Notes: generated by a model from the sequence alone, not told the origin. A stretch of DNA of 57,609 bases, filler included, from Sphacelaria rigidula (GCA_964200075.2; 3 parts of 3 records of this genome joined end to end with filler, not necessarily neighbours in it), one strand, 5' to 3'. Shown: positions 18,701 through 38,475, numbered from the whole stretch's first letter. Numbers and translations are program-made.

Positions 18701-19139
18701 ACGATGGTTTGTTTCGCGTGCGTGTTGGCAGTAGTGATGTTTTGTGGATTCCGCCGGATGAAAACGCTCTACAAACTCGCTTGATAGTGTGCGCTCACAT
18801 GCGGTCGGCTGATCACCGTGGTGTGGCGCCGACTCTATTTCGTTTGAAAGAATACAGTGTGTGGCCTCACGTGGGTTCCTGCGTTCGCGAGTTTGTTCGC
18901 CAGTGTTTGCATTGTGTAGACACTCGTGCTGGTGAGATTGTACATCGTCCGTATGGCGATACTGTGCATGGCACTGCGCCAGGTAAAGTCGTTCACTTTG
19001 ATTTTCTGTACGTCGGAAATAGCGGGCCTGAAGGTGCTAATGGTTTGCCTGGGGAAGATGGTTTTCGGTACGTGTTGGTTATGATGGATGATTTGTCCAA
19101 TTTTCCTTTGCTTGGAGCCGACCGAGGCTTGCACCGCCG
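15771..19139 (+). mobile_element. Decayed Ty3/gypsy LTR retrotransposon (gag-protease-partial RT-integrase), internally deleted
   Basis: gag-like ORF 16594-17352 with degenerate knuckle YNCSDTGHKIKHCP. Aspartic protease ILDSGS in 17356-18318. RT start (DPPARVEPM, LVSDYQAVN) is followed directly by the RNase H end (HIPGELTFWGDLLSR). Integrase His/Cys finger (AH..ADHRG..CLHC) and HFDFLY..VMMDDLS in 18538-19139. Multiple stops; ends at an assembly linker. Confidence 0.9.
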
Positions 19140-19239
19140 NNNNNNNNNNNNNNNNNNNNNNNNNNNNNNNNNNNNNNNNNNNNTTAATTAATTAANNNNN
19201 NNNNNNNNNNNNNNNNNNNNNNNNNNNNNNNNNNNNNNN
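19140..19239. other. Artificial contig linker (N-TTAATTAATTAA-N)
   Basis: 100-bp N spacer with an all-frame stop palindrome; an identical construct is at 38376-38475. Confidence 0.95.
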
Positions 19240-19299
19240 GCGCGCCCCCGCGCACCCGCGCCTCCCCCCCCCTCCCGGGCCCCCCCCCCCCCCCCCCCC

Positions 19300-19745
19300 C
19301 CCTGCTGTTGCCAGGTGCTGATGTTTCCGTATGCATCCGAGTGTCATTGGGGTAGTCTTGTATCGCAGGTGCCTGATGCAGAAATGCAACAACGGTTGCC
19401 GGTTGAAGACATGACGCATGAACCGCTGGCTTTTCTGAGTGGTAATTTCAAAGGCTCACGGATGCGTTGGGCAACCATTGACAAGCAAGGTTTTGCTATC
19501 GTGAGCACTTTCGGTCGTGTCGAGCATCTATTGTGGAATGACGTACAAATTTTCACGGATCACCGAAATCTAGCGTACATTTTCAACCCGTAGGTATGCT
19601 TGACGTCTGTGTCGAGGGTGTTGGCACAGCGATTGGAGGGGTGGAAAGGAGTATTAGGACAGTATCGGTACACGATTATTTGTCATATTTCGGGTGAGCG
19701 TAACCGGGGGGTGAGTTGCTGTCGCGCTGGGTAAATCTTCCCACT
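19300..19745 (+). mobile_element. Gypsy RNase H fragment (second copy, other side of contig linker)
   Basis: HEPLAFLSGNFKGSRMRWATIDKQGFAIV...IFTDHRNLAYIF, then CHISGERN...LLSRWV with a stop and frameshifts. Confidence 0.85.
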
Positions 19746-19752
19746 TTGGGGG

Positions 19753-20274
19753 TGCTATGGCGAAATCACGCCGTCACGGTTGAGTATATAGTGGTTCCTG
19801 GATGATGACCAGGGGACAAGGGCATCCTGTGGATGATGACCCTTGCTGTGTAGCCCAGGTTTGATGGTACGGCGCTGCAGGTGTTGACTCCGGTAACGAC
19901 AAGGTGTTGTGAAGGCTGATAACTGAGACATTGAGGCCAGTGGAACTGGGGTGTCCCTCTACAGCATTAGACGCTGCAGTACTAGCAACCTGCTAGCGTC
20001 ACAGCACGCAATGAGCATTGCGTTTGGCATGTGGGTTATTCCTTGCCGAGGCTTGCAAGGCATCGTATGAAGTGTTCAGCAGTGGTCGAGTGCAGTAGGT
20101 GGCGAGTATTTCTCAGAGATCGTTTTGAGACCATGTTCTTCTGGACGGAGGGGTCACCGGCAGTTGCCTGTCCCATTGTTTCTGGCGTTTCGTCCTCAAG
20201 CGGTCAAGGTATCAGGACCCACAGTTGAAACACTTCATAGTCTTCTTCACAGGGTCACCGTTTACCCTGTAACA
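19753..20274 (+). mobile_element. Probable LTR (~520 bp)
   Basis: Starts TG after a G-run and ends ...TGTAACA. 19765-19860 resembles 15775-15860 (CAGGGGACA.GG.ATCCT..ATG.TGACCC) upstream of gag. Confidence 0.5.
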
Positions 20275-20358
20275 TACACGCGTGTCGATAACGATGTCAC
20301 GGGTCGGACGAGTCATTACTCGTTTGGACGAGTGCACTCGTGGGTGTTTTCCCAAAAC

Positions 20359-20700
20359 ACAACGAGCAATGACTCGAGCGCTCGCCCTATTCATATTTTC
20401 GACAACAAGCGATGAGTCGAGTGCTCGCCCTGCTCATTTTTTCCACAACGAGCGATGACTCGAGGGCTCGCCCTATTGTCTTTTTTTCACAACGAGCAAT
20501 GACTCGAGTGCTTGCCCTGTTCACTTTTAGCACAACGAGCAATGACTCGAGTGCTCGCCCTACTCATTTTTTCCACAACGAGTGATGACTCGAGTGCTCG
20601 CCCTATTGTTTTTTTCCACAACGAGCGATGACTCGAGTGCTCGCCCCATTGACTTCTTCCACAACGAGCGATGACTCGAGTGCTCGTCCTATTAATTCTC
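20359..20700. repeat. Minisatellite, 8 units of ~43 bp
   Basis: Conserved core ACAACGAGCGATGACTCGAGTGCTCGCCCT plus a ~13-nt variable T-rich linker. Confidence 0.9.
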
Positions 20701-22086
20701 ACGGCCAACGAGCAGCCCAACGGCGAGTGCCACGAGTCACACTCGTGCTCGTCTGATGTATGAAGTCTTCCTAGGTTGGTAAAGCCAGGATGCTCTGAGC
20801 ATGTCTTCTCGTATTTTTGCATTCGGTATATTGTTCCTGGGACTTCCCAGGAGTTTTTTGGGGTCGCCAGCCTATACTAAATCGTAGTAGTTACACTAAC
20901 ACAGACAGGGTGGAGTGGGAGAAACCGGAAAGTAGTGTACATGCCACAATGTGGTCACCATCACGAGGCACTAAACCCAGGTGCGCCGTTGAAATACAAA
21001 AGGAGCTACCGTCATGAATTTTGCTCATTCCTCTGCCGATGACTTCTTGCAGAATACTGTGAACATGAATGTAGTGGGCGGGGATCACCAAGCTGTGTAT
21101 AGGCAGCTGATCTCCGTCGCTGAGAACTGCCCAGAACGCGCAAGGGAGTATGCAGTGACAGCTGCTGCCGCATTCGGAGAGGCGCACTGCACTATTCTGC
21201 ACTGCTGTATGTACCGCAACGTCCATATCCTTCCGAGATATCTTGTCGATTGCAACAAGGAGGGAAATGGCGGCCCATCCCGACCACAAGGATGATGAGG
21301 AAAATAATACCATCCAAAGTCACGAGTGGCGGGCGGCCCGCCGGTCGCCGCATCCTGCTGTAAGTTCACTATTGTACGGCGACACGTTCACCACATGAGA
21401 TGCTCATGTTAGCTAATGCGCATCCTGAACCTGAAAATAGGTAGGTACATCTCTCCATCTTCGTCGTGACCCTGCCGTGACATACACGGATTTTCAGCAA
21501 CTTTCCCCTATGACGTGCAGACGCCAGTCACGCCAGTGATGGCTGGTCATGTTGGTCGTTCTGTAGGCCCAACGAGTGCGCGAGTGCCACGGGTCGCTCC
21601 TCGCCCGTATCTTGTGTATTCTCGATCAGTCGTCGGGAGACCAGCATCATGGATTTCACCAGCATGTACCGAATGGCAGGACATTTCACGGTTAGGACAA
21701 ATTATCACGACTCAAAATCACCAAATTCACGATTTCTTCGGCCCGATTGCTCAAAATGGAGAACAAAGTTGATCGCTGGTCCAAGGGGTACCCACGCAAG
21801 TCTCGCACCTTTCCACGGGTCCGAGCTGCGTGTACCTGGGTTGTAACGCTGAAATAAAGCCCAGGGATTGATTCGTCACGAGTCGACGCACACTAAAACC
21901 AAATATCTGACACAATTATTTGTCCGATGCTTGGAACATTTTGAAAATAGAGCGATGGTCACCTCGTCTTTCTTGTTGTCCGCCACACGTGCCAGGAAGA
22001 ACGGTTCTGCGGTAGTGACGGATCCAGTTTGAACCACGGCTTCTCCATCGTTGATACTACCCGATATGTCACTGCTAGGTGCGCGA

Positions 22087-22294
22087 CTGTAATGCGTGAG
22101 AGGACTGCGTGCTTAGAGGACCGCATCCGACTTTGAAAATACTCATGGTTGGGGTGGGGTCGGTGCTGGGGTTGTGGTTAGGGGCGTGGTTCCTGCAGGG
22201 ATGAGCCCGATTGGTTTTGAAAAACATCGGTGCTGAGGTGTTCTGAACTACGGCACGGTCTTCCAAGCACACGGTCCTCTCCCGCACATCACAG
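22087..22294. mobile_element. Telomere-repeat-bearing MITE, copy A
   Basis: CGA|CTGTAATGCGTGAGAGGAC...GTCCTCTCCCGCACATCACAG|CGA: ~35-bp TIRs, 3-bp TSD, internal GGGGTT/TTAGGG-like units. Confidence 0.8.
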
Positions 22295-23898
22295 CGACGA
22301 CAGAGCGTAACACACGTCAGTTGAGGGGGGGGAGATGTAGGCGAGATCGGACTCTTGTGGGTACCTCGCGAACACGAGGGGTGAAAAATAGTATCTTGGG
22401 TGGTGATCCACCTGTTGCTAGCGTGGTGGAGAGGGGTTGCGTGAACCCCGCGGTACAGTAGCTTTCCGGAACTAATGCCGATGTGTGGAGGATATGCATT
22501 ACAAGCAGGAAACTTCGACACGTTCCAAATCCACGTTCCAAATTCAATCCACCTCCCCACATATTCGCGCAACTGCTACATTCTACGTCAACCGATCGCC
22601 GTACATACAGTTATCCTGTGCGTGCATCATCAACGGCAGCCATGCAACCATGAGGTCGGACTCTCACACGGAGGTTCATGTCATGCTCCCGCTACTGTAC
22701 CCGCCCGAATGATTCGTCACCACATCGATCAGCAAGAAGTGCTCCACGAAACATAACATGTACACCCCATCTAGCACCATCCGCGGCGGACTTTCGTATA
22801 CACTACTTTCGACACCCGACACACCGCTCCCACGATCACCTGCTGTCCACTCCACGGACGTGCGGAAAACAAACCGATCATGGATCGGGACGATCAGCAA
22901 ACACTCCATCCTGTCTACGTCAGAAGCTCCCACAAGGCGGAGTCAAGTTCACTTGAAAATGAAGAGAGGAGCACCCCCCCCGCGTCAATCGCAACACACA
23001 CCAGTAACCTAACCAATATAACGGAAATGAGGAGGACGCACTCGCTTTCGCCTGCGCCACCCACGATGCAACTGCGCTCTTGCAACAAAAGCAACCAAAT
23101 CGTCGATTTGGCCGCGCCACGTGATGTATGACACAACCCGCACTACTTGACAATGGCCTCCACCCGAAGCTGCACAGAGTCGAGAGATGAAAACACTCTT
23201 TGCGATCAACAACCGCCTCGCCTCGTCTGAGGGCAGTTTCCGACGGTACGTTTTGGCCGAGTGAACCTGGAACGACGAACTCATCGCTTCGGTGCATGAC
23301 TCGAACGAGGATCACGTACACTACGTTGTTACAAGATCTAATGCCGAGGTGAAGCGTCTCGACAGTGCTGCTTCTTCTACGCGGGGGTAGCAGTTAACTT
23401 CCACCGCACCATCGCGAACGTCTTCGATGATTTCCGGCGCACCGCCGAGTCGCCCCCCGCATTCCTATCATACCATGCAATTGCCCTTCTGACTCTTGCA
23501 CCCACTACTTCGCCTCGACCGCATGCTCCGTGGCTCATGTTTTACGACAGTTTTTCCACGCCGATGTTTGTTCCTGGTTTGCAGCATGTAGTGATCGAAC
23601 GAGAGGGTCGGAGAGTCGGCAGCGAGAGGGGCGTTTGTTGCTCGAAGTATACTCGACAGCGAAGGATACCAGCTTACCACGACGGTGGAGACACGGTGCA
23701 TGAGATCCGGTGAGCAACGGGGAATTGACTTAGCAGACCCATGGCGGAGAGCACGCGGGGAACATGGACCGACAGTGCCTTGATTCGTCTACTGTCCTTC
23801 CTCTGTCGCGGTGCCGGCACCGGGCATCCCTTGCGACAGCAGCAGCAGTATGCCAGGCGACAGCTGTATGAAAAAATACGAATCGACACCGCACAGAA

Positions 23899-26800
23899 TC
23901 ACAATGCCCCATGGATACCAGAGTCGGACTCACAGTCATCCCTCTTCTTCCTGTCCTTGCCATCCTTGCTGTCGCTGTCATCCTTGCTGTCACTGTCATC
24001 CTTGCTGCCCTTGCCACCCCTCCTCCTCTTCCCGCCCCTCTTCTTGCAGCAGTCGCGCTTGTCGCAGTCCCCGTCGCATGTGATGTCACCTCCAACAGAC
24101 TCCCACCCCTTGGGACAACGGTAGTCGCGGCACTTCTTGTCATCTGTCGCAGCCAGACGGAACCACAGGTACACTCAATGTGAGGATATCAAGCTACCAA
24201 GTGTTTCCGACACAGCAGTCGTCGATCGCATCGTTTCGACGTCACATCTTGGGGGTACCGCCGACGGCAAGTCGTTCGCTCTTGTCGAGTACCCGTTCAA
24301 GTATAGTTCCGACCATACAATCGCGACCTGTTTGCAAGCATTTTGCGCTGGACGAACTCTCGGCGACAGATGTCGCCTGCTCCTAGTTTAGCTCGCGGCG
24401 GTGCCAACCGCGGCGAAGCGTCACCAGGTACTTAAACGAGTGATGACACGTGATCACCACATTCAAGACATCGACCGCGACTACAAGTGATGGTACTACA
24501 CTGCTTACCCTTCTCGCAACATTCGCGCTTGTCGCACTCGCCGCGGCACTCCTTGTTACCGACGTTAAGGAAGCCGCTGGGGCACGTGTAGTCGTCCTTG
24601 CACGTCTTCACCTCTGCGAATGACACGGGAGGTGGCAAGAGAGCGACATCGTCGCGTCAAGTAACAGCCGCACACTATGGAGGATTAGGCCAAGCGAGAA
24701 TGAAGCCTCATCTTGCCTCACATTTGCTCCCAGTGGGAACACTCAACATGTGTTTCTTTTCTTTCGTTCGCTGGTTGTAAAATGCGTACAAATCTGCGTT
24801 GCATGTGATTCGTGTTAAAGTCACAGCGAAGCCCCAGGTAGTCTGGTGAAGCCCGGTCGTTTGACGCCACGTAAAGGCCGCGACCGGGACGAATGGGTCA
24901 TCGAGATTGAGAGATACCCTGGCACCCACGCAATGGATGCACGACTCGCCATTCCACACTCGCAAACGACGAATAATGCCCCCAGTATCATGTATGTCAA
25001 CGTTCTTGGTCGCATCCACATCAAGTGTCGACTACGACTGCTTGCATCGGATCCTTCAAATACTCACCCTTCTCGCAACATTCGCGCTGGTCGCACTTGC
25101 CGCTGCACTCCTTGTTACCACGGTTCAGATATCCGCGGGGGCAGGTGAAGTCATCTTTGCATGTCTCCACCTCTGCGAAGAACACGGCGGTCGACGGATG
25201 GGTGTCACTGTGGCGTTCGGGCTACAGGGACATGTTGTGCATGAGTTCCGGAGATGTGCGGTGGACCGCTCCACTGTGCCCCTGTGCCGTGTACCGATAC
25301 GTTCGACGGGGACTATCGCACGGCACTGCTGCTGCGCTTCAGCCCCCCGACGGTCTACACCACAGTCACGGCATCAGACGCCGGATCCTACGATAGGGGC
25401 TGGAGGTCTCGCACGATCCTACCCCGTGGTGATGCACGTGCATAATGCTGGTATCGGGTTCTATTCGCATAAATGCTGCTTGCAACGACGTTGTAACGAG
25501 CGAGTGTACACGGGTGGCCACTGAGGTGCCTGCAACCTCAAATTTGGACGTTACAGACGTTGCACAAGGTCTACAACGTCCAATTCTTGAGGTTGCAGGC
25601 ACCCCAGTGGACACCCGTCTATCGTCACGGAGCTTCGGCGACACCGACAGCACAACGTGACGCATGTCCGATAACTCATCTCTGGGGAATCTCGTTTCGG
25701 TGTACCAGCGACAACGCCCGGGACAATCAGCGGTCACACAGCCATAGCGGCCGTCAGTCTACGACCTACGGAACCCGCCGTGTGTAGCGAGCATACTGTG
25801 CTGTGGAGAATACCGATAGCGAACGCCGGCCTCGAGTGTTGCGTTCTTCGTCTGGCTCACCCTTTTCGCAACATTCGCGCTTCTCGCATTCGTCGCGGCA
25901 CTTCTTGTCACCGACGTTTAGGAAGCCGCTGGGGCACGTGTAGTCGTCCTTGCACGTCTTCACCTCTGAGAATGACCACGGCAGTCGACGAACGCATCTC
26001 ATGTTAGCGTCTAGTATCAACTGTACACAACTACGAGAAAACGTCATGTCGGAGTAAGGCTTCATGTTGTTGTGCTTCTGATCATTCCGAGGGCATCCAG
26101 AACAATGTGCATACACCCATGTGTTGAGATGTGATTCGGAGCGGTATGGATGTGAAAGCCGAAGATCTCTCGCGATGCTCGGCTCTCCGCGTCAAAGTCA
26201 GCGTCGTGATCAGGGCGATTCATTCGCAGATAGTACGGCTCTCGCAGTTGAGAATCGAAGTTCAGGCCCGCTTTTGCCGACAGCCACGGAGGATGGCACG
26301 ACTTTGAACCGAGAAAACCTGCAGCTTGTTGACTTCGTCGTGATCTAGAAATGCATGTCGATATGTGTGTACGTGTACTTCCTGTCGCATGAGGGCTTGA
26401 AAAAAATTCCGCTTATTCCGCCTTGCTCAGTTCGAAATATTTCCCTGTTTTGCTCACGCGCGCCTTCATGTCGGCGAAGGGCCAACAATCAAGGGGCCCC
26501 GAAAATTATCGTATTTCGCCCGATTCCGGGCGGGAAAGCTACAAAGCCGGCCCATTTTACTTGTTGATCGCATTCCAATTACATGTTGATCACGACTGCA
26601 GATGTCGCGTCTACAAGACACTCACCCTTCTCACAACACTCGCGTTGGTCGCACTTTCCGCGGCACTCCTTCTCACCACGGTTCAGGAAGCCGCGGGGGC
26701 AGACGAAGTCATCCTTGCATGTCTTCACCTCTGCAACGGAAACGGTATCCAATGGCTGAGTGTCGTCGGGGCATTCGAGCAAGCACTGCACGCCATCCCC

Positions 26801-29800
26801 GACCTTCAATGATGTGATGTTGACTGTTCTTCACGGTATACCGATACGCTTCTGATATCCTCAAACTGATCATGTTATTTACTCCACCACGCTGTTTCGC
26901 CTTATTCATGACCTGCACGTTGAACCGAGCTCTACCGTCCCGGGGACTTTTTCATCCTCACTGAAACTTGTAACAGTACGTTTACGTGGGCCAGCTTCTT
27001 CGACCGTATCAGTGCCGATAACGATCAACTGGAGGGTTTGCTTCCCTCACTCACCCTTCTCGCAACATTCGCGCTTGTCGCACTCGCCGCTACACTTCTT
27101 GTCACCGCGGTTCAGGAACCCGCTCGGGCAGGTGTAGTCGTCCTTGCATGTCTTCACCTCTGAGGCGGACACGGCAGTAGTGACGTTCTCTTGAATGGGT
27201 TGCAGTAGCAGGTTTGATGCACGCGAGATTTGCGGTTTCCGTTCAGCTTGCTTCTTCGACCGCTCATGCTACACTATCCCGACTTCGCAGGCAATTTGAC
27301 CCACTCTTCGAGGTGCTTTACTACACTGTGATGACCAGCGTACTGGCGACGGTGACTAATGCATGACACGTAACGCACGGCACTACAGCGTCACGAGGAC
27401 ATTTCCAACGTATTTGCAGGGTGGCCCCGGCAAAAACACTCAATTCGCGAAGTTCGCGCCCGGCTAAGCAAGGATGATGACAGGGGGGTCCCTTCCATCA
27501 TCATGGTCGCTGTTGTAATGCGTGAGGGGACCGCGTGCTCGGAGGACCGCACCGGAGTTTTCGCATCCCCATGGTAGGGGGAAGGGTTAGGGTTGTAATC
27601 AGGGGCGTGGTACCTGCAAGGACTAGCCGATTGGGTTTGAAAAACGTTGATTCTGTGTATTGAACTGCGACGTCCTGCAAGTAGGCGGTCTTCTCACGCA
27701 TTCCGGCTGTGCTCCGTGTGTACCCTCAACATGATGGCAAGGTATTTCGGAATACTGACCAATCTCTTGCACCGTATCCAACCCGTTTGTTCACAACAGC
27801 TGCAGGTATTGCTCCTTTCAGCCACTCACCCTTCTCGCAGCATTCCTTCTGGTCGCACTTGCCGCGGCACTCCTTGTCACCGACGTTCAAGAAGCCGCGG
27901 GGGCACTTGAAGTCGTCTTTGCACGTTTCCTTCTCTGTAACGGCCAAACGACGTCAATGGATCAGCAACCGTTGCTTCGTTTCGCCGGACCTCCTACACA
28001 CGATAAGTGCGGCTTTTCACGACCAAAATCGTGGTCGACGGTTTGATGCGAGAGAGGGGCGCTTGCTCAGAGGACCGCGCCGTAGTTCATAACACCCCAC
28101 AATCGATGTTTTTCGAAACCAATCGGGCCAGTCCTTGCAGGTACCACGCCCCTGACCCGAACCACAACACTAACCCGAACCCGAACCCCAACCATGGGAA
28201 TGTTCAAATTCAGATGCGGTCCTCCAAGCACGCGGTCCTGTCACGCATTGCAGACGGCACAAACACGACTGGATTGTTGCACAGTCGGTTAGCGCGGGCG
28301 ATGCTTCTCCAACACGTTGCACCCCATCGACAACAGCGGGGCCATGTGTGTACCGTCAGTGAACTGCAATTCGAGGCAGTGCTTCCTGGAGACACTCACC
28401 CTTCTCGCAGCATTCCTTCTGGTCGCACTTGCCGCGGCACTCCTTGTCACCGACGTTCAAGAAGCCGCGGGGGCACTTGAAGTCGTCTTTACAAGTCTCC
28501 ACCTCTGCGACGGACACGGCAGCCAACGGGTGGGCGTCGTCGTCACGCCCAAGCAAGGTCCAAGCGTACTGGGTCACTTCCACAGCAGAGAGAATACCGG
28601 TGAAACCCAGGGTTCTCCATCTAGACACACTTCCAAATACTTTATAATGCGTGAGAGGACCGCGCCGTAGTTCAAAACACCCCAGGATCAACGTTTTCCA
28701 AAACCAATCGGGTCCGTCCCTCGAGGTACCACGCCCCTGACCGTAACCCCAATACTAAGCCTAACCCTACCGCCAACCATAGGAATGTTCAAATTCAGAT
28801 GCGGTCCTCCAAGCACGCGGTCCTCTCACGCATTACATACGTTCCTCTATCGGGATGAATCCGGCAGCTCAAGGAAACAACGCATGTCTCTACCGGTACA
28901 CCTGTAACACAGAAACACCTGTATATCGAATCGGACCAGTACACCTGCACCCCGTCAACTCGCACACGCGTTTACCGAAAACAGAACACGCAATCCTCGG
29001 GCCCAGCGGTGCCAGCTGTATACCATCAGGTTACCGGGTCGCCGAGAACCCCCCCTCATGGGTATGAATGCCCCGTACCCTCTCACGGGCATTGGGAGTC
29101 GTATTTGGTGAAATCTCACCAATGCCCTGCCGTATTGGTTGCGTCGAACGTACTGCGTCATGCACGCGGCCACCAGTTTTTTGTCAACAGCGAAAGCAAA
29201 CTTGTACCAGTTTGCCGTACCACTTGTACACCGAGGGCAAGTGATATCGACTGGAGTCGGGGGTAGACATTGCTCACCCTTTTCGCAACATTCGCGCTGA
29301 TCGCACTTGCCGCGGCACTCCTTGTCACCGCGGTTGAGGTAGCCGTTAGGGCACTTGAAGTCGTCCTTGCATGTTTCTTTCTCTGTGACGACCAAACAGG
29401 CGACGTCAAATAGATCCAGTAGGGAGAGCAAAAAGGGGTTGGCGGGAGGGAGTTGATTCCGGTCGGCAGATCTGTACACAGCACCTGATTCCAGCGCGGG
29501 TTCGCCAACTCCTCGAGCCTAGCACGAATTCCCCTCAAGCACCAACACGATCAGACACAAGCATCATGTTCGGAAGCGTTCGCGGGTCGAATACAACATG
29601 CGTACACTCCTCGGTCGGAGCCTCTGCTTTCGTGTAACCCGGACGTCGTAGTCGACAGAGGGTGGCCCCTTTTTTTTCAGAGGAACACCCTATACCGTCG
29701 AAATCGCCGATCCAATGACGTCAACCGCTTATCGAGAGCGGACCTCGACCAGTGCTGACGTGCGGAGTGGGCGGACTAGGCCAGCCTCACAATGCCCACC

Positions 29801-32800
29801 AAGAGCATGGATATTGCCTCTTCAAGACGTTCCACGTAAATGTCAGCGGAACCATGCACGTCCTACCCGTGCACTGGAACACGTGTTGCTCCTCTCGGAC
29901 ATTCTCACCCTTCTTGCAGCATTCGCGCTTGTCGCACTTGCCGCGGCACTCCTTGTTACCGACGTTGAGGAAGCCGCTGGGGCACGTGTAGTCGTCCTTG
30001 CAAGTCTTCACCTCTGCGGTGGACACGGCAGCCAAAGGGTGGGCGTCGTCATCGCGGTCCAGCGACGCTGACGCACTTTGTTACTGAATAGTGGCGAGCC
30101 GCTTCAAAGTACAGTGAATGTTGATCGCTATTGCTGGCATCAGAGGTGTGTACTCTAGTTCGTTGTTTTCGTCGTACTCCCAACCCTTCCTCTTACTCGG
30201 GACGAGTCCATGGTCTCGACGTCTGGTCAGACAGGCTTCACAGTACAATCTTCTCACACCGGCAGTAAATGCGTCCCTTGTTTTGTGCTGCTACATTCCC
30301 CCCTTCACGACCGTATGCGATATCCCTGCCCTCATCCGTCATATTCAGAGTGGATGCTGTGGACCGCAGCCAACCGCAGGTAGGTACTGTGATGCGTGAG
30401 AGGACCGCGTGCTTGGTTCAGAATACCACAGGATCGACATTTTTCGAACCAATCGGGTCAGTCCCTGCAGGTACCACGCCCCTGACCCCAACCCTAACCT
30501 CAACAATGGGGGTGTTCAAATTCCGACGCGGTACCCCAAGCACGCGGTCCTCTCACGCATTACAGGTAAAGAGTTGCTTCCTTTGACAACTCACCTTCCT
30601 CGCAGCATTCACGCTGGTCGCACTTGCCGCGGCACTCCTTGTCACCGCGGTTTAGGTAGCCGTCAGGGCACTTGAAGTCGTCCTTGCACGTTTCTTTCTC
30701 TGTGACGCACAAGTAACACCAGATCACGAAAAATGTCGCGCATGAGTATGTCATTCTCCAGCTTGCCTCATTCAGCAGGTCCTGTTTCGAAGCATCGTGG
30801 GTGGCCATAGCAAACTGGGTTTGGCACCGGCAGCATACGCGCGTCAGGTGTGCGCAATTCGTGCCCATGACCCAACCCTTAGCCATCCAGGACCGATCCA
30901 GTGGCTTCAACGCTGACGATCACGAGAGTTGCGCCGCCACTAACGTACTACTCGATATCCCCATGACAGCCACATGTTCATGATGTTGTTCCGACTCCCT
31001 TCAGGTCATTCTTCGCCACCAACAATCATGATAATATTGCCGTCTACGACCAACTGATTCGTCGCCGGTGTCCTGTCGTCGTGCAACTCTTGCACTGTTT
31101 CCCACCCAACTGCGATTATCAAACAATGCGTGGGAGGACCGCGTGCTCAGAGCATCGCATCGTAGTTCATGACACCCCAGGATCGACGCTGTTCAAAACC
31201 AATCGAGCGAGTCTACATAGGAACCACGCCTCTAATCCCAACCCCAACCTTTAACTCCGATGCAGCCTTCTGTGCACGCGGTTCTCTCACGAAATACGGG
31301 TTTTCTCGAATAACGTTCCGATAGGGTTTGGAAAGTGGTGGGCATCTCCAAACTGTTGTAACTGTCGATTCATGGTCCATCAGCAACACATGCAACCGTC
31401 CGGACACCGCTCACCCTTGAAGCAACAGTCGTTCTTGTCGCACTTGCCGCGGCACCTCTTGCGGTCGTCGCCGATTGGCTTCCAGTCACCCGGGCAAGAG
31501 AAATGCTTGCACTTGTCACGCTGCTTCGAGGTGAGTCAACCGGCACGCCGTGAAAAACGTGTACTAACGTGAAATGAATCGCGATGCCTCACCATGTGCC
31601 ACATCATGCGTACGGTGTGGTGGCAGTCTCCACACTACAGCTCTGCACCCCCGCGCCACGGGCACTCCTCGTTGCTACAGCGCACTGAGAAGGGCATGAA
31701 AAGCGACCGACCTGAAACCAAATGATCTGGGCGAAGCCACTCTTGTCCATTCTTTTTCCAGCATAGATTTGTGGCCATGGGCGCTAGATCTCCGGAACGG
31801 GTGAATGTGATGAAACAACATATTTCTGCTAACCCATGTTGAATGAAGCCATACCAGAGAAAAGAGACGTTGACCATACAGGGAGCTACGTAAATGAGAA
31901 TTTCAGGGCTCCCTCGCGAGAGATATTTCAACTTTTGCGTGCCAACATGTCTCCCGTACCCAGTCAGCATCATCCAAGCAAAAGGAAACAATGCAGGAAA
32001 ACAAACAATTACAGACGCGGGGGGGCAAGGAACGTCAGTTGTTCAACGCTGTTCCAAGTACAGCACACGCTTCGCCCCCCAATGATCTTAGTTCAAGTAC
32101 ACGACAAGTCTGGTACTTGCATCGCGTTTTCGCCGCACGCGACGCAAGCCAGCATGTGGCACTTTACAGCCACTCGCACACACATAGGCTGGGGGACTGT
32201 AGAATAAGTTAGCTCAGATCTCCGCAGAGGGCCCAAAAGACCCTTCAACAGCGCAAAGCAACAGTCATTTACGAGCTGGGTCAGCCTAGAGGCGGATTTG
32301 AAGTTTGCTGGCTCATGCTCCCGCCAGTATTTGGAGTTGGACCCTGAAATTGGGTAAGGACAATGGATAGGGCATGAAAAACAAAGTCACGCCGGTACCA
32401 AAAGTTTTCGTGAGTCGAAGGCATTTTACTGATACGTCAACTGATTACTGCCCATAACTGATGAAAAAAACTTGTGGTTCCGGCGTAATTCTCTTCTCCA
32501 TGCCCTACTCACTGTCCACACCAATATTCAGGGTCCAACTTTGAATACTGGCGGGAGCATGGACCTTAAAAAAACCGGGCCAGTGGAAATTCGAAATGGT
32601 GTTGCGCAGGCCACTTACCGGCCCGTGTTTGGTTCTTGTGTATTGAAATCTTTACCCCCATCCTTTTGCGGTGCTCGCTCCTTCTCTTCATCGCGGGAGG
32701 GGTTCAGCGGGCTCTTTCCCTCGCCCACCGTCGAGTCGAGTTTCGTGTACCCACGATACAGTCGCTCTCCACTGTTAGGCTTGGTGTTGAAAAAAATCCA

Positions 32801-35800
32801 GATCGCTCCGGGAATCGAGCCCCCTACTCAACTATCGGAAGGTTACGCGGTCTTCAACTGAGCCACCGGGGCGACCGGCTCCAAGAAATAAAGTGGGTCC
32901 GGTTGATTGTTTACATTTCTTCCACTGGTTCATGGCGTTCTACTGTGGTAAAGACCATGTCTTCACGAGAACGCCCCACCCTCCATGAGAAAGGAATGAG
33001 GGCCAATTTGTTGTTACTCAGCACTTTTTCTTTTGTTTGGTATCTCCGTCGGGTACAGAAATGACATGGGGTTTAATCAACGAGAAAATATGGGCTCAAA
33101 CTCTTGAGCAGATGGGCACCTTCCGCTTGATCAGACGATGAATTCGACGTGCGGATATGCGACCCAACTCGTCCGTGTCCATGAGGTATTGCTTCTAGAG
33201 CTCAACCCTTAGACCACGAGGTCAGTCTTAGGTATGCCTGATCCAGGAGGACTAATCTCGTGTATCAAGGGTTAAATCCGTCCCTACGCTGGCCCGGTTC
33301 GTAGGACGTCTGGTTTGCCGCGGCCGTTGTAACGCTTCCAGGCCCTAGTTTGGGTGCGCGGCAAGCGCACGCGAGAAACCGCAGTCCAATCCTTCGCTTG
33401 GTTGCCGAGAAATTTTCAGTTCAAGATTGGCACTCTGGGGTTCGTGATCAACAGCATACAAGAACATTTCCGGCTATTGCTGTGGTGTGTGGGGGGCCAC
33501 AACTTGTGCATATCTTCGTCTCGTGATATTCGCAAGGGCGGTGAACGTGGTGTGGTAGCTTGCGGGTATGTGCCTCTCGAGTGTTTCACCAACAAGCAGC
33601 AGTAGGACCCTAGTGCAACAAGGGCACAACAAGAGCAGCAGCTTCCTCCATCCTCCTGCTGCAGCATGTATCATTTTTTTAGTGCACTATAGATGTGCCA
33701 GGTCGTGATTTTGAGGCGACGCGTCCACTCGTGATTTTTACGGATCGACTCGTGAAGGCCTCATTTCTTCCAAAGAAGGGTGTCGATGCACACCATCCCG
33801 AAATTCAGTGCCTAAAATCAGAATCCTGGTTCCCCCCACATGACCGTTGTACATGATTCCGCCACAAGAAACGACTTTTAATATGGTGCCAAACTAAATC
33901 AATGTCAGTCGGCTTTTCGAACCCCCGCGTTGCTCATCTGTCAAATCGCCGAACATGGTCGTCGACTACCGCCGTGACCATTCAGCCCAGCGTATATACG
34001 TTCTACTGTACAAAAGACACCGTCCGATCCCCTCTGCACTACACTTGCAACATCGGCATGCCAATGTACGGCAGTGCGCGACATTTACACTACACGTTAC
34101 CTTGCGGCCACGGGAGCCGAGGTCGCGATGCGTGTCTGCTGGGTCAAAGTCCTCCTGATTGGCGATTCCGTGCTCCCCGCCTGCCGGCACGAGGCCGCAG
34201 CAGACACGTGATGGAGGCAAACGTCAGGGTTTGGTCAGCGCATGGGGCCACAAGTGTGATACACGGCGGAGAAGAGACCCTCCCTCACCATGTTGGTGTG
34301 TACCGTTCTAGTAGCCAGCTCAAAAGCTGAAATCCTCCCACCGAAAATATCGCGACAAGCGCAGCGACACATCACGAAGTTTTACATATCCTCGTGAGGG
34401 GAGAATCGCCATGCGTGTGATCCGATAGTTTTCCTGTACTCGAGGGTGTTCACACAAGGGACAATGTCGTGACTGCCCACATCAGGGGGAAGAGAACGTG
34501 GGTTGAGTTCCCACCAGATGCGTTCTTCCCTCTCAAAAGAGAGTATTTCCATCGTTGAACGTGGGAGGATGTGAAAAGAATGGGTTCATCTCTCGAGACC
34601 ACGGATTCGTCGTGAGGAAGGGGAGGGGTTTAGAATGTGACGAAAATATTCATGTGCCATTGAGATGTAAGACACGGGATTTTGCAAATCGGGGATGAAT
34701 CTTATACTGGGGATGAAGACCCGGGGGATTAAAATCTTCGTACGTAGCCACACCAAATTTTCGAAGTATGTTTCCATTTCTTCACTTGCTGGTAGCCATC
34801 AACAATCACTACACGCCACAGAAGTTTCGATTCCGATGACCGAAATGTCGGGGTCCCAGGTGAAGGACCATTTTTGGCGTCCGATCGGACGCCTAGAATC
34901 GCCCAAATTTGGAGGCTATGCGCGGCCCTCCCCTCCAGGGACAAAAATGAGTTTCCCGAGGCGTTCAATCTCTCTTGAGCAAACCAAATAATCTCCTCCG
35001 GAGGGTCGCACTTCTCCGGAGGCATTTAGTTCGTTTAGAGGCTCAAATCGTTTTCGCACCTGGAGGAAATTTGGAGTTCGCCAAATGGCCGCGTGTGCGA
35101 TGATGGTAGTTGCTGCGATATCACCCCCCCCCAAAAAAAAATGCCAAAAACTCGCTCGTGCAAAAATGAGCACATGAGCTGGCGCTTGAGCTAATAATGC
35201 GTGTGAGTGCTGGGTGTCTATGCGTCGGTTTCCGGGGTTCGATGTGTCATCTCGTTGCGTCCTATCCGCAGCGGTACACCGATTTCGGACTACCGGTAGG
35301 GAGATTTTGGGCTAACGGCCACTTCCGGAACCTCCGTATTTTCTACTCGTGTGCATGTCTGGGCTCTGATCTGGGCAAAACTGCTTGTCGATAACACACC
35401 CTGGACAAAAAATTACATTGCCAAAAAAGATACTGCGTGCATTATGGGATTTTCTGTCCATATATAATCCTTGTTTCAGAGTGTGGTCGACAACACGCAG
35501 CACCGGTCGCTGTGGGGGCAAACACTTCTCCAAAAGTGACTTTACGAAAAGCGGTTGTCACATCCGATAAGACCCCGCCTGACACGTACACGACAGCCAT
35601 GTCCTCAACCATCCAAGAAAATGATTAGTGCGGATAAATCAGAAACGAGCGATTTCGATCCGACCGCACGTTCTCGACACGAAAACAATTTGGTAACACA
35701 CGCGGTCTCAATGAAGCACGAAAAACACATCTCTGGGGGTTGGCTCAACCCCCAGACCCCGACATTATTAGTCTTACTGGACCATGCATAAACAGCGGAT

Positions 35801-37881
35801 CATCCATGTTGAGGATGGAGATTTTCATTGAGGATGAGAACCCGGAGGATTAAAATCTTCGTACCGACACTAAATCTTCGAAATATGGTTCCATTCCTTC
35901 ATTCACCTGCTGGTAGCTAATTACAACTGCTACATGTCCTAAAAATTTGGATGTCAATAAGCGGAATATTGGGATCCCAAATGATGAAACAATTTCACGG
36001 AGTTCAGGTGATCCGATCGGATCGCCGAAATTCCCCGAAATTGGGTTTTCCCGTAGGACCCCAACATTTCGGTCATTGAAACGCAAATTTGTGTGACGTG
36101 TAGTACTTGTCAACAGCTACGAAGGAATGGCACCGCATTTCGAAGATTTGGTGTCGATACGAAGATTTTAACCCTCCGGGTTCTCATCCTCAATGAAACT
36201 CTCCATCCTCAACATACATGATCCGCTGTTCGTACTTCTTTCACTTGAAATTGATGCCGATTCAGACCAATCTCGCGGTCCAAGGGTTACACGAAAGGAT
36301 TTCGCCAATCTTGGAAAAAAAACTGGCCTACTGATGTTTCTCTGCGGTCACACATTTCACCCCGAAATTCGAAATATGACGCCGCGAGTGACCTGTAGTC
36401 GGAGGCGACAGGGCCTTGGCCAGTAGGTTTCACCACCTGGTGAAGTGGCTGTCAATGATTCTACTTCGTGTCTGCCCCCCTCGCTCGAGGGTTCACGGTA
36501 TGTCTTGGGCTGGGATGATATTATATCGAGTGATGCTCATCACCTCGCCTTGGTGGGTCCAGCTTGTAGCGAGTACCCATGCATCCAAATGAAACTTGCG
36601 TTTTCGAACCTCAGGTGTACAGTACGGTCGACCCCATGGACTCCAACCGAGAGTGTGGAGTTCGTTGGGCGGGGCACATGTCCCATCCCTCTCGGGATGG
36701 CATTATTTGAAATTTCCGGCAGTCGTACTACACAAAGGGGATCAAAGCTTCAGGGGATAGACGTTGGGCAGAAGCCAGACACGGACGACACATTGGTACT
36801 CGTGGCACTGGCTCCACGCAATAACGTGACGTCAAGTCCGAGATGGGCATACTAACGCGCTACTCTATCTCGCGCAAGCTCGAGGCATGCATATGTATAC
36901 CGCAGCATGGTATCATATACCCTGCCACATGAATGAGCAGCAGCAACGCAGGAGCAACCCCACATATTATTATGTAGTCAGCTTGAAGTGTCGAGGATAT
37001 CGTGCTGCGCTGGGCAAACTCGTCTTCTGTACCGACATTTCGCCTTCACTTGCTGGCTCCAGCGTCCAATGTTCGGTCAAAGTGTGGCGTTTCAGGCCAT
37101 CGGTTTCCCTGTACCACTACGGTGAATGGTCTAGGCTGTGTGCGTGCGCCACTCGTTGTAAACTGCACGCTGTTCATGAGCACGGACAGCCCCGCAAGTC
37201 GGCAATCCGTGTCGACATACATACATGTATACATATATACATATATACACGTGTACCGGAATCGCTCAGCGCCCATTCGCGACGAAACTCCACCATCAAT
37301 CCATGAAAGGACAGTTTCATTCGAACAGTGGGCACCTGAAACGAGTGTAGGACGTCGATCGTCCAAAATACCGCCCTGGATGACAAGAGAGGTGTGCGGT
37401 GCTCAAGCCGCATCATCCGCGGGGTACACCAGCACGCTATAGACATGAGCTACCGAATGTGTGTGTCTTTTCATAACGATGCACTTCAACTGTCCCAAGC
37501 ATAACCTGAGGTTAGTCTGGCCAACTTGGTACAAATACAAGAGGTTCAATCTCGCTTCAAGTCGCCACGCGACCCCCGGTAAGTGATACTCTAAATGTCA
37601 GTGATCGGCTGCTCACTCTACATCTCTGCAGCGACACATAGTACGCGATGCGAGTACCAGCAAGCGGGTGCAACGAAAGCCTGCGCGTTGTCAACATCAT
37701 ACGATTGTATACTCGTTCGTATGATTTCAAGACCCTCATCCGCGCCATTACATCACCACCGCTCGGAACAAATCCCACCGCACTGTTCGCACTGACCTTC
37801 AGGTTCAACAACAGCGGTGGATCCCCATGCCATGCCCAGCAACAGCAAAAAAAAAGCCGTTTTCTCGCCTCTGATCTTCAT
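23899..37881 (-). CDS. Predicted secreted cysteine-rich tandem-module protein (~521 aa, 12 six-Cys modules), 14 exons
   Basis: Exons (5'->3'): 37797-37881 (MKIRGEKTAFFLLLLGMAWGSTAVVEPE), 34101-34180 (GGEHGIANQEDFDPADTHRDLGSRGRK), 31415-31520, then ten 105-nt exons 30595-30699, 29909-30013, 29278-29382, 28400-28504, 27830-27934, 27055-27159, 26626-26730, 25861-25965, 25068-25172, 24509-24613, and last 23899-24143. All have CAG acceptors and GT donors with compatible phases; total 1566 nt = 522 codons. Module exons are high confidence; the first two exons and the exact 3' end are less certain. Confidence 0.85.
27514..27703. mobile_element. Telomere-repeat-bearing MITE, copy B (intronic)
   Basis: TGTAATGCGTGAGGGGACCGCG...GCGGTCTTCTCACGCATT with internal AGGGTTAGGGTT. 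Confidence 0.8.
28043..28252. mobile_element. Telomere-repeat-bearing MITE, copy C (intronic, opposite orientation to A/B)
   Basis: Same TIRs; internal TAACCCGAACCCGAACCC. Confidence 0.8.
28643..28837. mobile_element. Telomere-repeat-bearing MITE, copy D (intronic)
   Basis: TAATGCGTGAGAGGACCGCG...CGCGGTCCTCTCACGCATTACA; internal CCTAACCCTA. Confidence 0.8.
30387..30565. mobile_element. Telomere-repeat-bearing MITE, copy E (intronic)
   Basis: GTA|CTGTGATGCGTGAGAGGACCGCG...CGCGGTCCTCTCACGCATTACAG|GTA, 3-bp TSD; internal AACCCTAACC. Confidence 0.85.
31125..31291. mobile_element. Telomere-repeat-bearing MITE, copy F (degenerate, intronic)
   Basis: AATGCGTGGGAGGACCGCGTGCTC...GCACGCGGTTCTCTCACG. 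Confidence 0.7.
32600..32878 (-). mobile_element. tRNA-derived SINE-like element (intron 2 of Cys gene)
   Basis: The minus strand begins CGCCCCGGTGGCTCAGTTGAAG...GGCTCGATTCCCGG (Pol III A- and B-box-like), followed by a ~200-bp unrelated body. No intact cloverleaf is evident. The 3' boundary is approximate. Confidence 0.55.
34671..34910. mobile_element. Half copy of foldback MITE family
   Basis: GACACGGGATTTTGCAAATCGGGGATG...ATTAAAATCTTCGTA... matches the left arm of 41706-42142. Confidence 0.7.
35791..36230. mobile_element. Foldback MITE, full copy (~440-bp imperfect palindrome)
   Basis: AACAGCGGATCAT...ATGATCCGCTGTT termini, arms complementary over ~200 bp, flanks CATA/CGTA. Confidence 0.8.
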
Positions 37882-38280
37882 GATTGCCCTTGCTCTCGAG
37901 AAGTGAAACTGCTAGGAGACGAAAGGTGTAAAATTGCTGTTGCGCACTACACCGGAAGGGGAGTAGTCTGGCGAATGAGAGAGGAGGGGGTTGTGGTGTG
38001 GGATGAGCGGATGGGTGGGGGGGACGGGGGGGGGGGGAGGCGGAAGGGGTAGGCACGACTGAGAGGCATATCTAAATTAGAATATTTCACCCGGTGCAGA
38101 GCGGAGTATACGTCTTGTATTCTGTCCGTTTTTTTCTCATATATGTGTCGGGGTATTCTGTGGTGCAGGTCTGAAAACCCGCACTGGAGTGCCGGAGAAG
38201 GCCCGAGTTTGAGGCGACCTGAAGTTGTGGGCGTAGATCTAAGGTTGATTTTTTTTTAGCAAACAAAAACAAAAACAACG

Positions 38281-38375
38281 CCAACCCTAACCCTAACCCC
38301 TGTAATGCGTGAGAGGACCGCGTGCTTAGAGGACCGCATCGGAATTTGAACATCCCTATGGTTAGGGTTAGAGAT
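38281..38375. mobile_element. Telomere-repeat-bearing MITE, copy G, truncated by assembly linker
   Basis: (AACCCT)2-3, then CTGTAATGCGTGAGAGGACCGCGTGCTTAGAGGACCGC...GGTTAGGGTTAG up to the N run. Confidence 0.75.
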
Positions 38376-38475
38376 NNNNNNNNNNNNNNNNNNNNNNNNN
38401 NNNNNNNNNNNNNNNNNNNTTAATTAATTAANNNNNNNNNNNNNNNNNNNNNNNNNNNNNNNNNNNNNNNNNNNN
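38376..38475. other. Artificial contig linker (N-TTAATTAATTAA-N)
   Basis: Same construct as 19140-19239. Confidence 0.95.

Follow-up and report, generated by a model that had tools for sequence, protein, structure and literature searches.

What kind of protein is encoded by the series of small cysteine-rich exons on the minus strand of the Sphacelaria rigidula DNA analyzed here (GCA_964200075.2; 57,609 nucleotides [nt], filler included; hereafter the window)? The locus almost certainly represents one spliced unit, a nuclear gene of at least 15 exons that runs on the minus strand from 38001 to at least 23400 (window coordinates throughout). On a modest balance of probability, we read its product as carrying a new disulfide-rich module within a secreted, beads-on-a-string protein of the cell wall or extracellular matrix.

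A six-frame scan for the cysteine pattern C-x5-C-x(9-13)-C-x3-C-x4-CC returns ten matches, confined to 24516-30688 of the minus strand, and each of them has the spacing C-x5-C-x11-C-x3-C-x4-CC. A looser cysteine pattern identifies exactly 12 modules across the 57.6-kb window, every one inside the gene (numbered M1 to M12 from the N-terminus), and has no match in any of 20 shuffles of the window. When each module core is extended outward to the nearest splice signals, all ten core modules fall on exons of exactly 105 nt in phase 1/1, preceded by AG and followed by GT (acceptor ...CAG upstream, donor GTGAG or GTAAG downstream), and the codon split at the core-exon junctions is always G|AG (Glu). 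Repeat and exon coincide in ten of ten cases, with identical length and identical phase. A preliminary description of this DNA had set out these ten exons and their cysteine pattern, together with two divergent cap modules; the scans reproduce all of its coordinates and counts for the former and, with the total of 12, recover the latter.

Nine public runs contain the stretch, none of which is recorded as RNA, and four of them (X1, X2, X5, and X6) were aligned on 23400-38100. Splice-junction results refer to the matches listed, and a further 126 joints and 450 loose ends lie outside these. In X1 and X2, exon-containing bins have a summed word depth of roughly 3e3 to 8e4, and ten intron-only bins of unique sequence have a summed depth of 0-41. 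X6 is DNA-like, with unique sequence covered evenly at about 105-145 (records 24-31), and X5, from a different study and under a different organism label, contains spliced contigs that are 95-99% alike. Joints whose ends are CT..AC (GT..AG when read on the minus strand) coincide exactly with introns 3 (30699>31415), 4 (30013>30595), and 13 (24143>24509). Loose ends, reverse-complemented by hand, connect exon 2 forward with the first bases of exon 3 and backward with the last bases of exon 1, and others link M5-M6, M7-M8, M8-M9, and M10-M11 (introns 7, 9, 10, and 12) as well as the two sides of the 3' terminal intron. Among the matches listed, spliced contigs support at least 10 of the 14 introns, both long 5' introns included, which bears out the splicing assumed in the preliminary description; no supporting match is listed for introns 5, 6, 8, and 11. 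The gene is transcribed and spliced, and from the depth contrast and the spliced joints we infer that X1 and X2 are RNA-derived.

The same alignments contain two further signals. The letter of the window is outvoted in summed depth (X1, X2, and X6) at exon positions 24070, 24102, 29967, 30653, and others, and the exon-containing bins of the DNA-like X6 are several-fold deeper than unique sequence. Together, the majority variant letters and the deeper exon bins indicate that the genome has additional near-identical modules or paralogous genes at other sites.

The 5' untranslated region (UTR) covers at least 37882-38001, given that an X5 contig (record 23) is unbroken over 37836-38001; read by eye, the sequence between 38001 and the start codon contains no ATG. 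Exon 1 (37797-37881; 85 nt, ending in phase 1) provides the start codon and a signal-peptide-like N-terminus, and at 34182 both X1 and X2 have a loose end that supports its junction with exon 2. Exon 2 (34101-34180; 80 nt, phase 1 to 0) encodes an acidic spacer or 'pro-region' that ends RGRK and is followed by an R supplied by exon 3; an X1 loose end at 34101 continues into exon 3 at its start, and X5 record 22 spans exactly 34101-34182 with foreign flanks on both sides. Exon 3 (31415-31520; 106 nt, phase 0 to 1) encodes the divergent N-terminal cap module M1, with the spacing C-x4-C-x13-C-x3-C-x4-CC, and is tied to exon 4 by the intron 3 joint in X2. The first three exons join onto the array in phases 0>1>0>1, as had been proposed for the signal-peptide and pro-region exons, and the joined reading frame is open. 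Introns 1 and 2 measure 3616 and 2580 nt, respectively, and introns 3-13 measure 324-773 nt.

Exons 4-13 encode the core modules, all of them found by the scan. M2 (exon 4, 30595-30699) is bounded by the joints of introns 3 and 4, the second of which, present in both X1 and X2, also bounds M3 (exon 5, 29909-30013). M4 (exon 6, 29278-29382), M5 (exon 7, 28400-28504), and M9 (exon 11, 25861-25965) are placed by scan and splice signals. M6 (exon 8, 27830-27934) has a loose end at 27935 that reads into the end of M5; M7 (exon 9, 27055-27159) and M10 (exon 12, 25068-25172) have loose ends in X5, at 27055 and 25068, respectively; M8 (exon 10, 26626-26730) has a loose end at 26626 that reads into the start of M9 (X1 6, X2 5); and M11 (exon 13, 24509-24613) is bounded by the intron 13 joint, carried by three contigs in X1.

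Exon 14 (23934-24143; 210 nt, phase 1/1) encodes the divergent C-terminal cap M12 and a highly charged K/R/D/S tail; X5 record 17, like loose ends in X1 and X2, shows use of its donor GT (23933-23932). Across the last intron (23574-23933; 360 nt, GT..AG), X5 record 17 joins 23572/3 to 23933, and loose ends in X1 and X2 lie at 23573 and 23933. The same contig and loose ends define exon 15 (23400-23573, with the 3' end below 23400), which supplies the 'GA' of a split TGA stop and then the 3' UTR. The splice-site sequence reads ...GATGACT|GTGAGT at 23934|23933 and ...CCAG|GAACAAAC at 23574|23573; the stop codon is built across this junction (T|GA) and exists in the spliced mRNA only. Because exon 14 ends at 23934 and splices to 23573, the protein ends ...RKKRDD and has 510 amino acids (aa) in total, rather than the about 521 estimated earlier from a last exon ending at 23899. 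Were the last intron retained, the protein would gain 11 residues ahead of an in-frame TGA. Low-depth unspliced contigs span the donor of this intron in X1 (record 1, 23637-23962) and X2 (record 9, 23544-23962).

The protein comprises, in order, a hydrophobic leader, a short acidic spacer ending RGRKR, 12 tandem modules, and a charged tail rich in K/R and KDDSDS-type repeats. Its 510 residues include 72 Cys (14.1%), with K at 15.9%, D at 12.7%, E at 10.6%, and R at 8.2% (isoelectric point about 7.6), and contain no N-x-S/T sequon. The sole hydrophobic stretch is at residues 8-18, where the top 19-residue Kyte-Doolittle windows all fall at residues 7-9, and the same scan finds no transmembrane segment or other hydrophobic stretch after the leader. 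By hand rules, the leader has basic residues at positions 2, 4, and 7, a core at 8-18, and A-x-G and S-x-A at 18-20 and 21-23; it thus combines a charged n-region, an h-region of 10-15 residues, and small residues at -3/-1, from which we infer a cleaved signal peptide.

The modules are ~35 aa long, with six Cys each, and are separated by linkers of about 4-5 residues (CC-E-K-E-[VK]-[KE]-T-C). Alignment of all 12 shows six Cys, one Pro, and one Gly to be invariant and several K/D/G columns to be nearly so, and the Cys2-Cys3 loop is the most variable part. The RGRKR just before the first module is a possible kexin/furin-type site, and, together with the K/R clusters after the last module, it would fit a polyprotein, in which the chain is cut between modules after secretion to release 12 peptides of ~35 aa, each with three disulfides and a defensin-like antimicrobial or signalling role. 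Small cationic or anionic three-disulfide units do have the size of defence peptides, and the family is very abundant in the RNA-like runs. Typical multi-peptide precursors carry spacer propeptides between their units, whereas the present array has none; moreover, its 4-5-residue linkers lack dibasic sites, and the KR pairs within the array sit inside modules (CDKRECC) rather than between them. We therefore regard release of separate peptides as unlikely.

How the array arose can be read from comparisons among its exons. Exon DNA identity between core modules is 76-95%, the maximum being M5 vs. M6 (95%). Averaged over all 45 pairs of the ten core modules, nonsynonymous divergence (dN) is 0.13 and synonymous divergence (dS) is 0.74, and this ratio of 0.18 at such a dS indicates old duplicates under purifying selection. 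From the identity matrix, the modules can be read as four groups, {M2, M4}, {M5, M6}, {M3, M7, M9, M11}, and {M8, M10}, and the interleaving of these groups along the gene fits duplication of one- and two-module units. The introns had been described as largely dissimilar. This holds in that most are unalignable; however, five of them carry copies of a ~190-nt element resembling a miniature inverted-repeat transposable element (MITE), and some exon pairs have 40-65 nt of flanking intron in common (65 nt of downstream intron in M8/M10, about 43 nt of upstream intron in M3/M5). The MITE-like copies beside M5 and M6 are 87% alike, vs. 72-77% to other copies; with the 95% identity of the two exons, this suggests that the latest duplication probably copied an exon-plus-intron unit of ~580 bp. 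Overall, the array appears, from these comparisons, to have grown by tandem duplication of exon-plus-intron units, followed by purifying selection.

A short intron motif was also noticed. In the introns before M3, M5, M8, and M10, the last 35-45 nt share a GACGACGCCCACCC-TTGGCTGCCGTGTCC-type motif ahead of the acceptor (e.g., 30014-30056 and 28505-28547); these introns are 58-77% identical over 60 nt, and the other introns are without the motif, which may be left over from the duplication unit or may serve as a conserved signal for splicing.

The 1/1 phase of the core exons would permit modules to be gained or lost without change of frame, and it had been proposed that any module of this gene can be skipped or swapped. 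X1 and X2 do contain module-skipping joints with GT..AG-type ends (25965>27055, 25172>29278, and 24140>27055), as well as one 'backward' junction (30697>29909). The short side of the skipping joints measures 20-28 letters, and several exon ends are identical over 28 nt: the start of M9 equals that of M11, the end of M7 equals that of M11, and the end of M5 equals that of M6. Given the short overlaps, the non-unique exon ends, and the majority variant letters, these joints are explained at least as well by paralogues or by ambiguity in k-mer assembly; the symmetry that underlay the proposal stands, and actual skipping does not follow from these joints. The same evidence bears on the idea of a variable recognition or defence molecule, whose phase-1/1 exons would be skipped, duplicated, and exchanged to give many isoforms or alleles. 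This idea draws on the symmetry and equal length of all core module exons, on the skipping joints, and on the precedent of the LRR-ROCO and NB-ARC-TPR genes of brown algae, for which such exchange has been proposed in Ectocarpus (PMC3341825; PMC11378527). Against it stand the brevity of those joints and the identity of exon ends between modules, the paralogous variants that dominate several positions in the same runs, and a dN/dS of 0.18 at dS 0.74, which denotes purifying selection rather than rapid diversification. A diversifying recognition or defence molecule is unlikely.

Does the module belong to a described family? Pfam scans of 25 sequences and seven exon products return no family above the cut-off. 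They list no EGF-family match at E ≤ 10 and no match to EsV-1-7, WSC, or metallothionein, in keeping with the earlier impression that the module is none of these. A profile of the 12 modules has best E values of 0.2-0.35 against Protein Data Bank (PDB) sequences (complement factor H, an antifreeze protein, and Shisa-3, 5m0w). P0005, a 97-aa natural fragment of 2.5 modules, has a sole match there, to the four-module CREMP structure 9pgb (E 0.024, with no significant single stretch); neither query has a PDB match below E 0.02. The preliminary description had named a strong match to a known domain as the result that would remove the novelty of the module, and these searches of Pfam and PDB give none that is significant.

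An exhaustive phmmer search of 1.84 billion representatives finds 13 relatives, all of them fragments of 55-113 aa. In an exact-sequence look-up of ten relatives, two are NCBI entries named 'unnamed protein product, partial [Sphacelaria rigidula]', and the other eight (likewise P0001 and P0008) are ENA fragments on contigs of 510-1355 bp. The two named entries agree with a Sphacelaria-type brown alga as the host. Several relatives are read-through open reading frames (ORFs) over one exon, and splicing is evident in P0002 and P0005. P0005 retains the specialized terminal module, 63% identical to M12, and a basic tail behind it, which implies that the capped architecture is conserved between loci. 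A homologous-protein search with a 43-aa in-frame reference, which reads a few residues into both introns, yields no full-length annotated relative (one 113-aa fragment, and none among 15 candidates), and this is weak evidence of absence. Pattern matches on JGI metagenome contigs (81) and viral contigs (66) include none confirmed by tblastn. A viral origin of the module was considered and is unsupported, as the viral-contig matches failed that step. In the literature on brown-algal cysteine-rich and secreted repeats, supplementary tables lying outside the search, no description of the module was found, and the passages concerned name only EsV-1-7/IMM as brown-algal Cys-rich families. Judged by sequence comparison, the module appears to belong to no described family and to be known from a handful of unannotated or partial fragments.

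A structure prediction for one module, as had been suggested, was made with AlphaFold2 from 25 aligned sequences. It has a mean predicted local distance difference test score (pLDDT) of 82.3 and a predicted template modeling score (pTM) of 0.42, with 33 of 34 residues at 70-90, and places short strands or a small beta-hairpin ahead of a one-turn helix at CDxxECC. In the prediction for P0005 (pLDDT 62.9, pTM 0.35), a strand-hairpin-helix-strand order occurs twice; at this pTM the relative orientation of the modules is not confidently fixed. The 34-aa model gives no match with Foldseek against PDB, and none in VIA wide or BFVD. For the 97-aa model there are 21 Foldseek matches at E 2.6-9.6 (EGF, TNFR, and CREMP arrays; TM about 0.2), none at E ≤ 0.001, and no match in VIA at Z ≥ 2; in the ESM Atlas, the best feature score for P0005 (0.77) and the best TM (0.40) are both under threshold. 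The Foldseek, VIA, and BFVD results, blanks included, were discounted in both directions, given how small or uncertain the models are.

Shisa_N (PF13908) is the only recurrent Pfam match, present in 8 of 25 sequences at E ≤ 10 (E 0.0012 at best), and raises the possibility that the module, instead of founding a new family, belongs remotely to the Shisa-like cysteine-rich domain (CRD) superfamily. Shisa proteins have eight Cys and one CRD, after which come a transmembrane helix and a Pro-rich tail. The likeness lies in a C-P...G...C-x(2-3)-C-x4-CC stretch, and the alignment of the module profile with the Shisa-3 CRD (5m0w, E 0.35) places the CP, the G, and the C...C-x4-CC in register. The displayed scores are below the gathering score (for M2, 14.3 bits and E 0.044, vs. 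22 bits), Cys-rich composition inflates scores, the 25 sequences are not independent, and the match is limited to profile positions 13-37 of 50. The known CRD occurs singly on an animal, single-pass membrane protein, in contrast to 12 tandem six-Cys modules and no transmembrane segment in a brown alga, and Foldseek against PDB, 5m0w included, returned nothing. Membership of the Shisa-like superfamily is, on this evidence, improbable. Less probable still is a multi-headed inhibitor or binder, for instance of proteases or of the wall-degrading enzymes of grazers or pathogens, with one loop per bead: tandem small disulfide-rich domains are common in secreted inhibitors and the Cys2-Cys3 loop is the most variable, but there is no likeness to inhibitor families in Pfam or PDB, and ten near-identical heads (the core modules are 62-94% identical to M2) leave little target diversity.

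The preferred reading is a new module in a secreted, beads-on-a-string protein of the wall or matrix. Its more specific form gives the protein, as an abundant constituent of wall or matrix, a structural or multivalent cross-linking function; this form is plausible by analogy and stands a little short of an even chance. In this scheme, the leader would be cleaved in the endoplasmic reticulum, and each module would fold independently and be locked by three disulfides. Once secreted into the wall or extracellular matrix, the mature protein would form an elongated string of rigid beads, each of which might touch anionic wall polysaccharides through its dense mixed charge and its two conserved aromatic positions. 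The wall and matrix proteins of brown algae are little known, and no such protein resembling the twelve-module one was found in the brown-algal literature searched. As a candidate for one of the major wall or adhesive components of Sphacelaria, the protein is a strong one.

Several points weigh against this reading. X1 and X2 are labelled 'RNA? (a guess)', their RNA nature being a deduction from depth and joints. The depths sum all aligned contigs, paralogous modules included, and therefore denote a family abundantly represented rather than a gene highly expressed. Secretion is read by hand from the leader sequence of a gene known at the nucleotide level, and the carbohydrate-binding or wall role is argued from architecture, composition, and analogy. 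Null results of fold searches with 34-residue or uncertain models say little for novelty of fold. The lack of relatives in other brown algae is likewise weak evidence, as the search covered proteins, and small-exon genes are easily missed by gene callers. The last point has a wider meaning: the family escapes annotation, with two partial entries and about a dozen stray fragments in protein searches, yet is abundant in the RNA-like runs, which cautions that annotations of brown algae overlook repeat genes with small exons.

As to the surroundings of the gene, N-runs at 19140-19239 and 38376-38475 lie on either side of TTAATTAATTAA, a six-frame stop linker. The N-runs and linkers show that the window consists of separate contigs joined together; the piece with the gene would be 19240-38375, and sequence beyond it is not its neighborhood. 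Pfam scans of ten ORFs inside or beside the gene gave no match, and no overlapping gene was detected; of ten ORFs elsewhere in the window, the only match is a retroelement integrase, in an ORF of a neighboring piece (18538-19137, plus strand; Integrase_H2C2, E 1.4e-7), which is a retroelement fragment. The MITE-like element is ~190 nt long, with AATGCGTGAGAGGACCGCGTGC-type terminal inverted repeats and an internal degenerate telomere-like (TTAGGG-like) tract, and its copies are 72-88% alike. The copies, which occur in both orientations, lie in introns 3 (31121-31320), 4 (30392-30566), 6 (28647-28841), 7 (28046-28256), and 8 (27513-27701), as well as at 22084-22286 and 38299-38375. Very high-copy repeats occupy 35675-36240 in intron 1 and 32238-33219 in intron 2, with summed X6 depths of about 5e5 and 1e5, respectively, vs. 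about 135 for unique sequence, and a 110-nt inverted repeat, 92% complementary, lies at 35791-35900 and 36121-36230. These high-copy repeats probably descend from transposons and have lengthened introns 1 and 2. A tRNA-like stretch noticed by eye in intron 2 was rejected, as ARAGORN made no call there.

Among known systems, the closest in build are structural proteins of animals in which small disulfide modules repeat in tandem; they include CREMP (9pgb), octovafibrin, the DPY modules of DUMPY, and Chironomus Sp185 (10.1101/2025.09.16.676614). They share with the Sphacelaria protein, as predicted, head-to-tail, disulfide-locked modules of 30-40 aa, a small beta-hairpin, short linkers, an orientation between modules that prediction does not fix with confidence, a Cys content of 10-17%, and an extracellular location, and such animal proteins build tough extracellular materials. 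They show no significant similarity to it in sequence or fold, and differ in having two disulfides (or an EGF fold), another Cys spacing, and an unrelated lineage: CREMP is described there with four Cys per module, spaced C-x4-C-x5-C-x8-C (10.1101/2025.09.16.676614), whereas each core module here has six, spaced C-x5-C-x11-C-x3-C-x4-CC. The resemblance is one of analogy, not homology. The Sphacelaria module offers a compact disulfide scaffold of 35 aa for structural study.

In exon layout, the nearest parallel within brown algae is provided by the LRR-ROCO and NB-ARC-TPR genes of Ectocarpus, which likewise have symmetric exons of equal length with one repeat each (PMC3341825). Those genes encode intracellular LRR or TPR solenoids with reported shuffling, in contrast to the secreted, phase-1/1 Cys modules under purifying selection described here. 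That study concludes that the one-repeat-one-exon layout of Ectocarpus is confined to LRR/TPR immune-receptor candidates (PMC3341825). With the present gene, the layout in brown algae extends beyond such candidates.

Extracellular modules of metazoans (EGF, Sushi, and others) follow Patthy's 1-1 rule, by which they lie on exons of phase 1/1, and the layout of the Sphacelaria gene parallels that rule, with a signal-peptide exon ending in phase 1 and disulfide-rich module exons of phase 1/1 after it. The modules differ from those of animals in having no Pfam EGF or Sushi match and a Cys pattern that ends in CC, and they belong to an independent multicellular lineage, the complex multicellularity of brown algae having evolved independently of that of animals and plants. 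Tentatively, and with less assurance than for the structural role itself, we suggest that Sphacelaria-type brown algae possess a new three-disulfide family, observed to date in them only, of abundantly transcribed, secreted matrix proteins, which would have reinvented the combination of a phase-1 signal exon with 1/1 modules independently of animals, and in which module number might be tuned by exon duplication and possibly by skipping.

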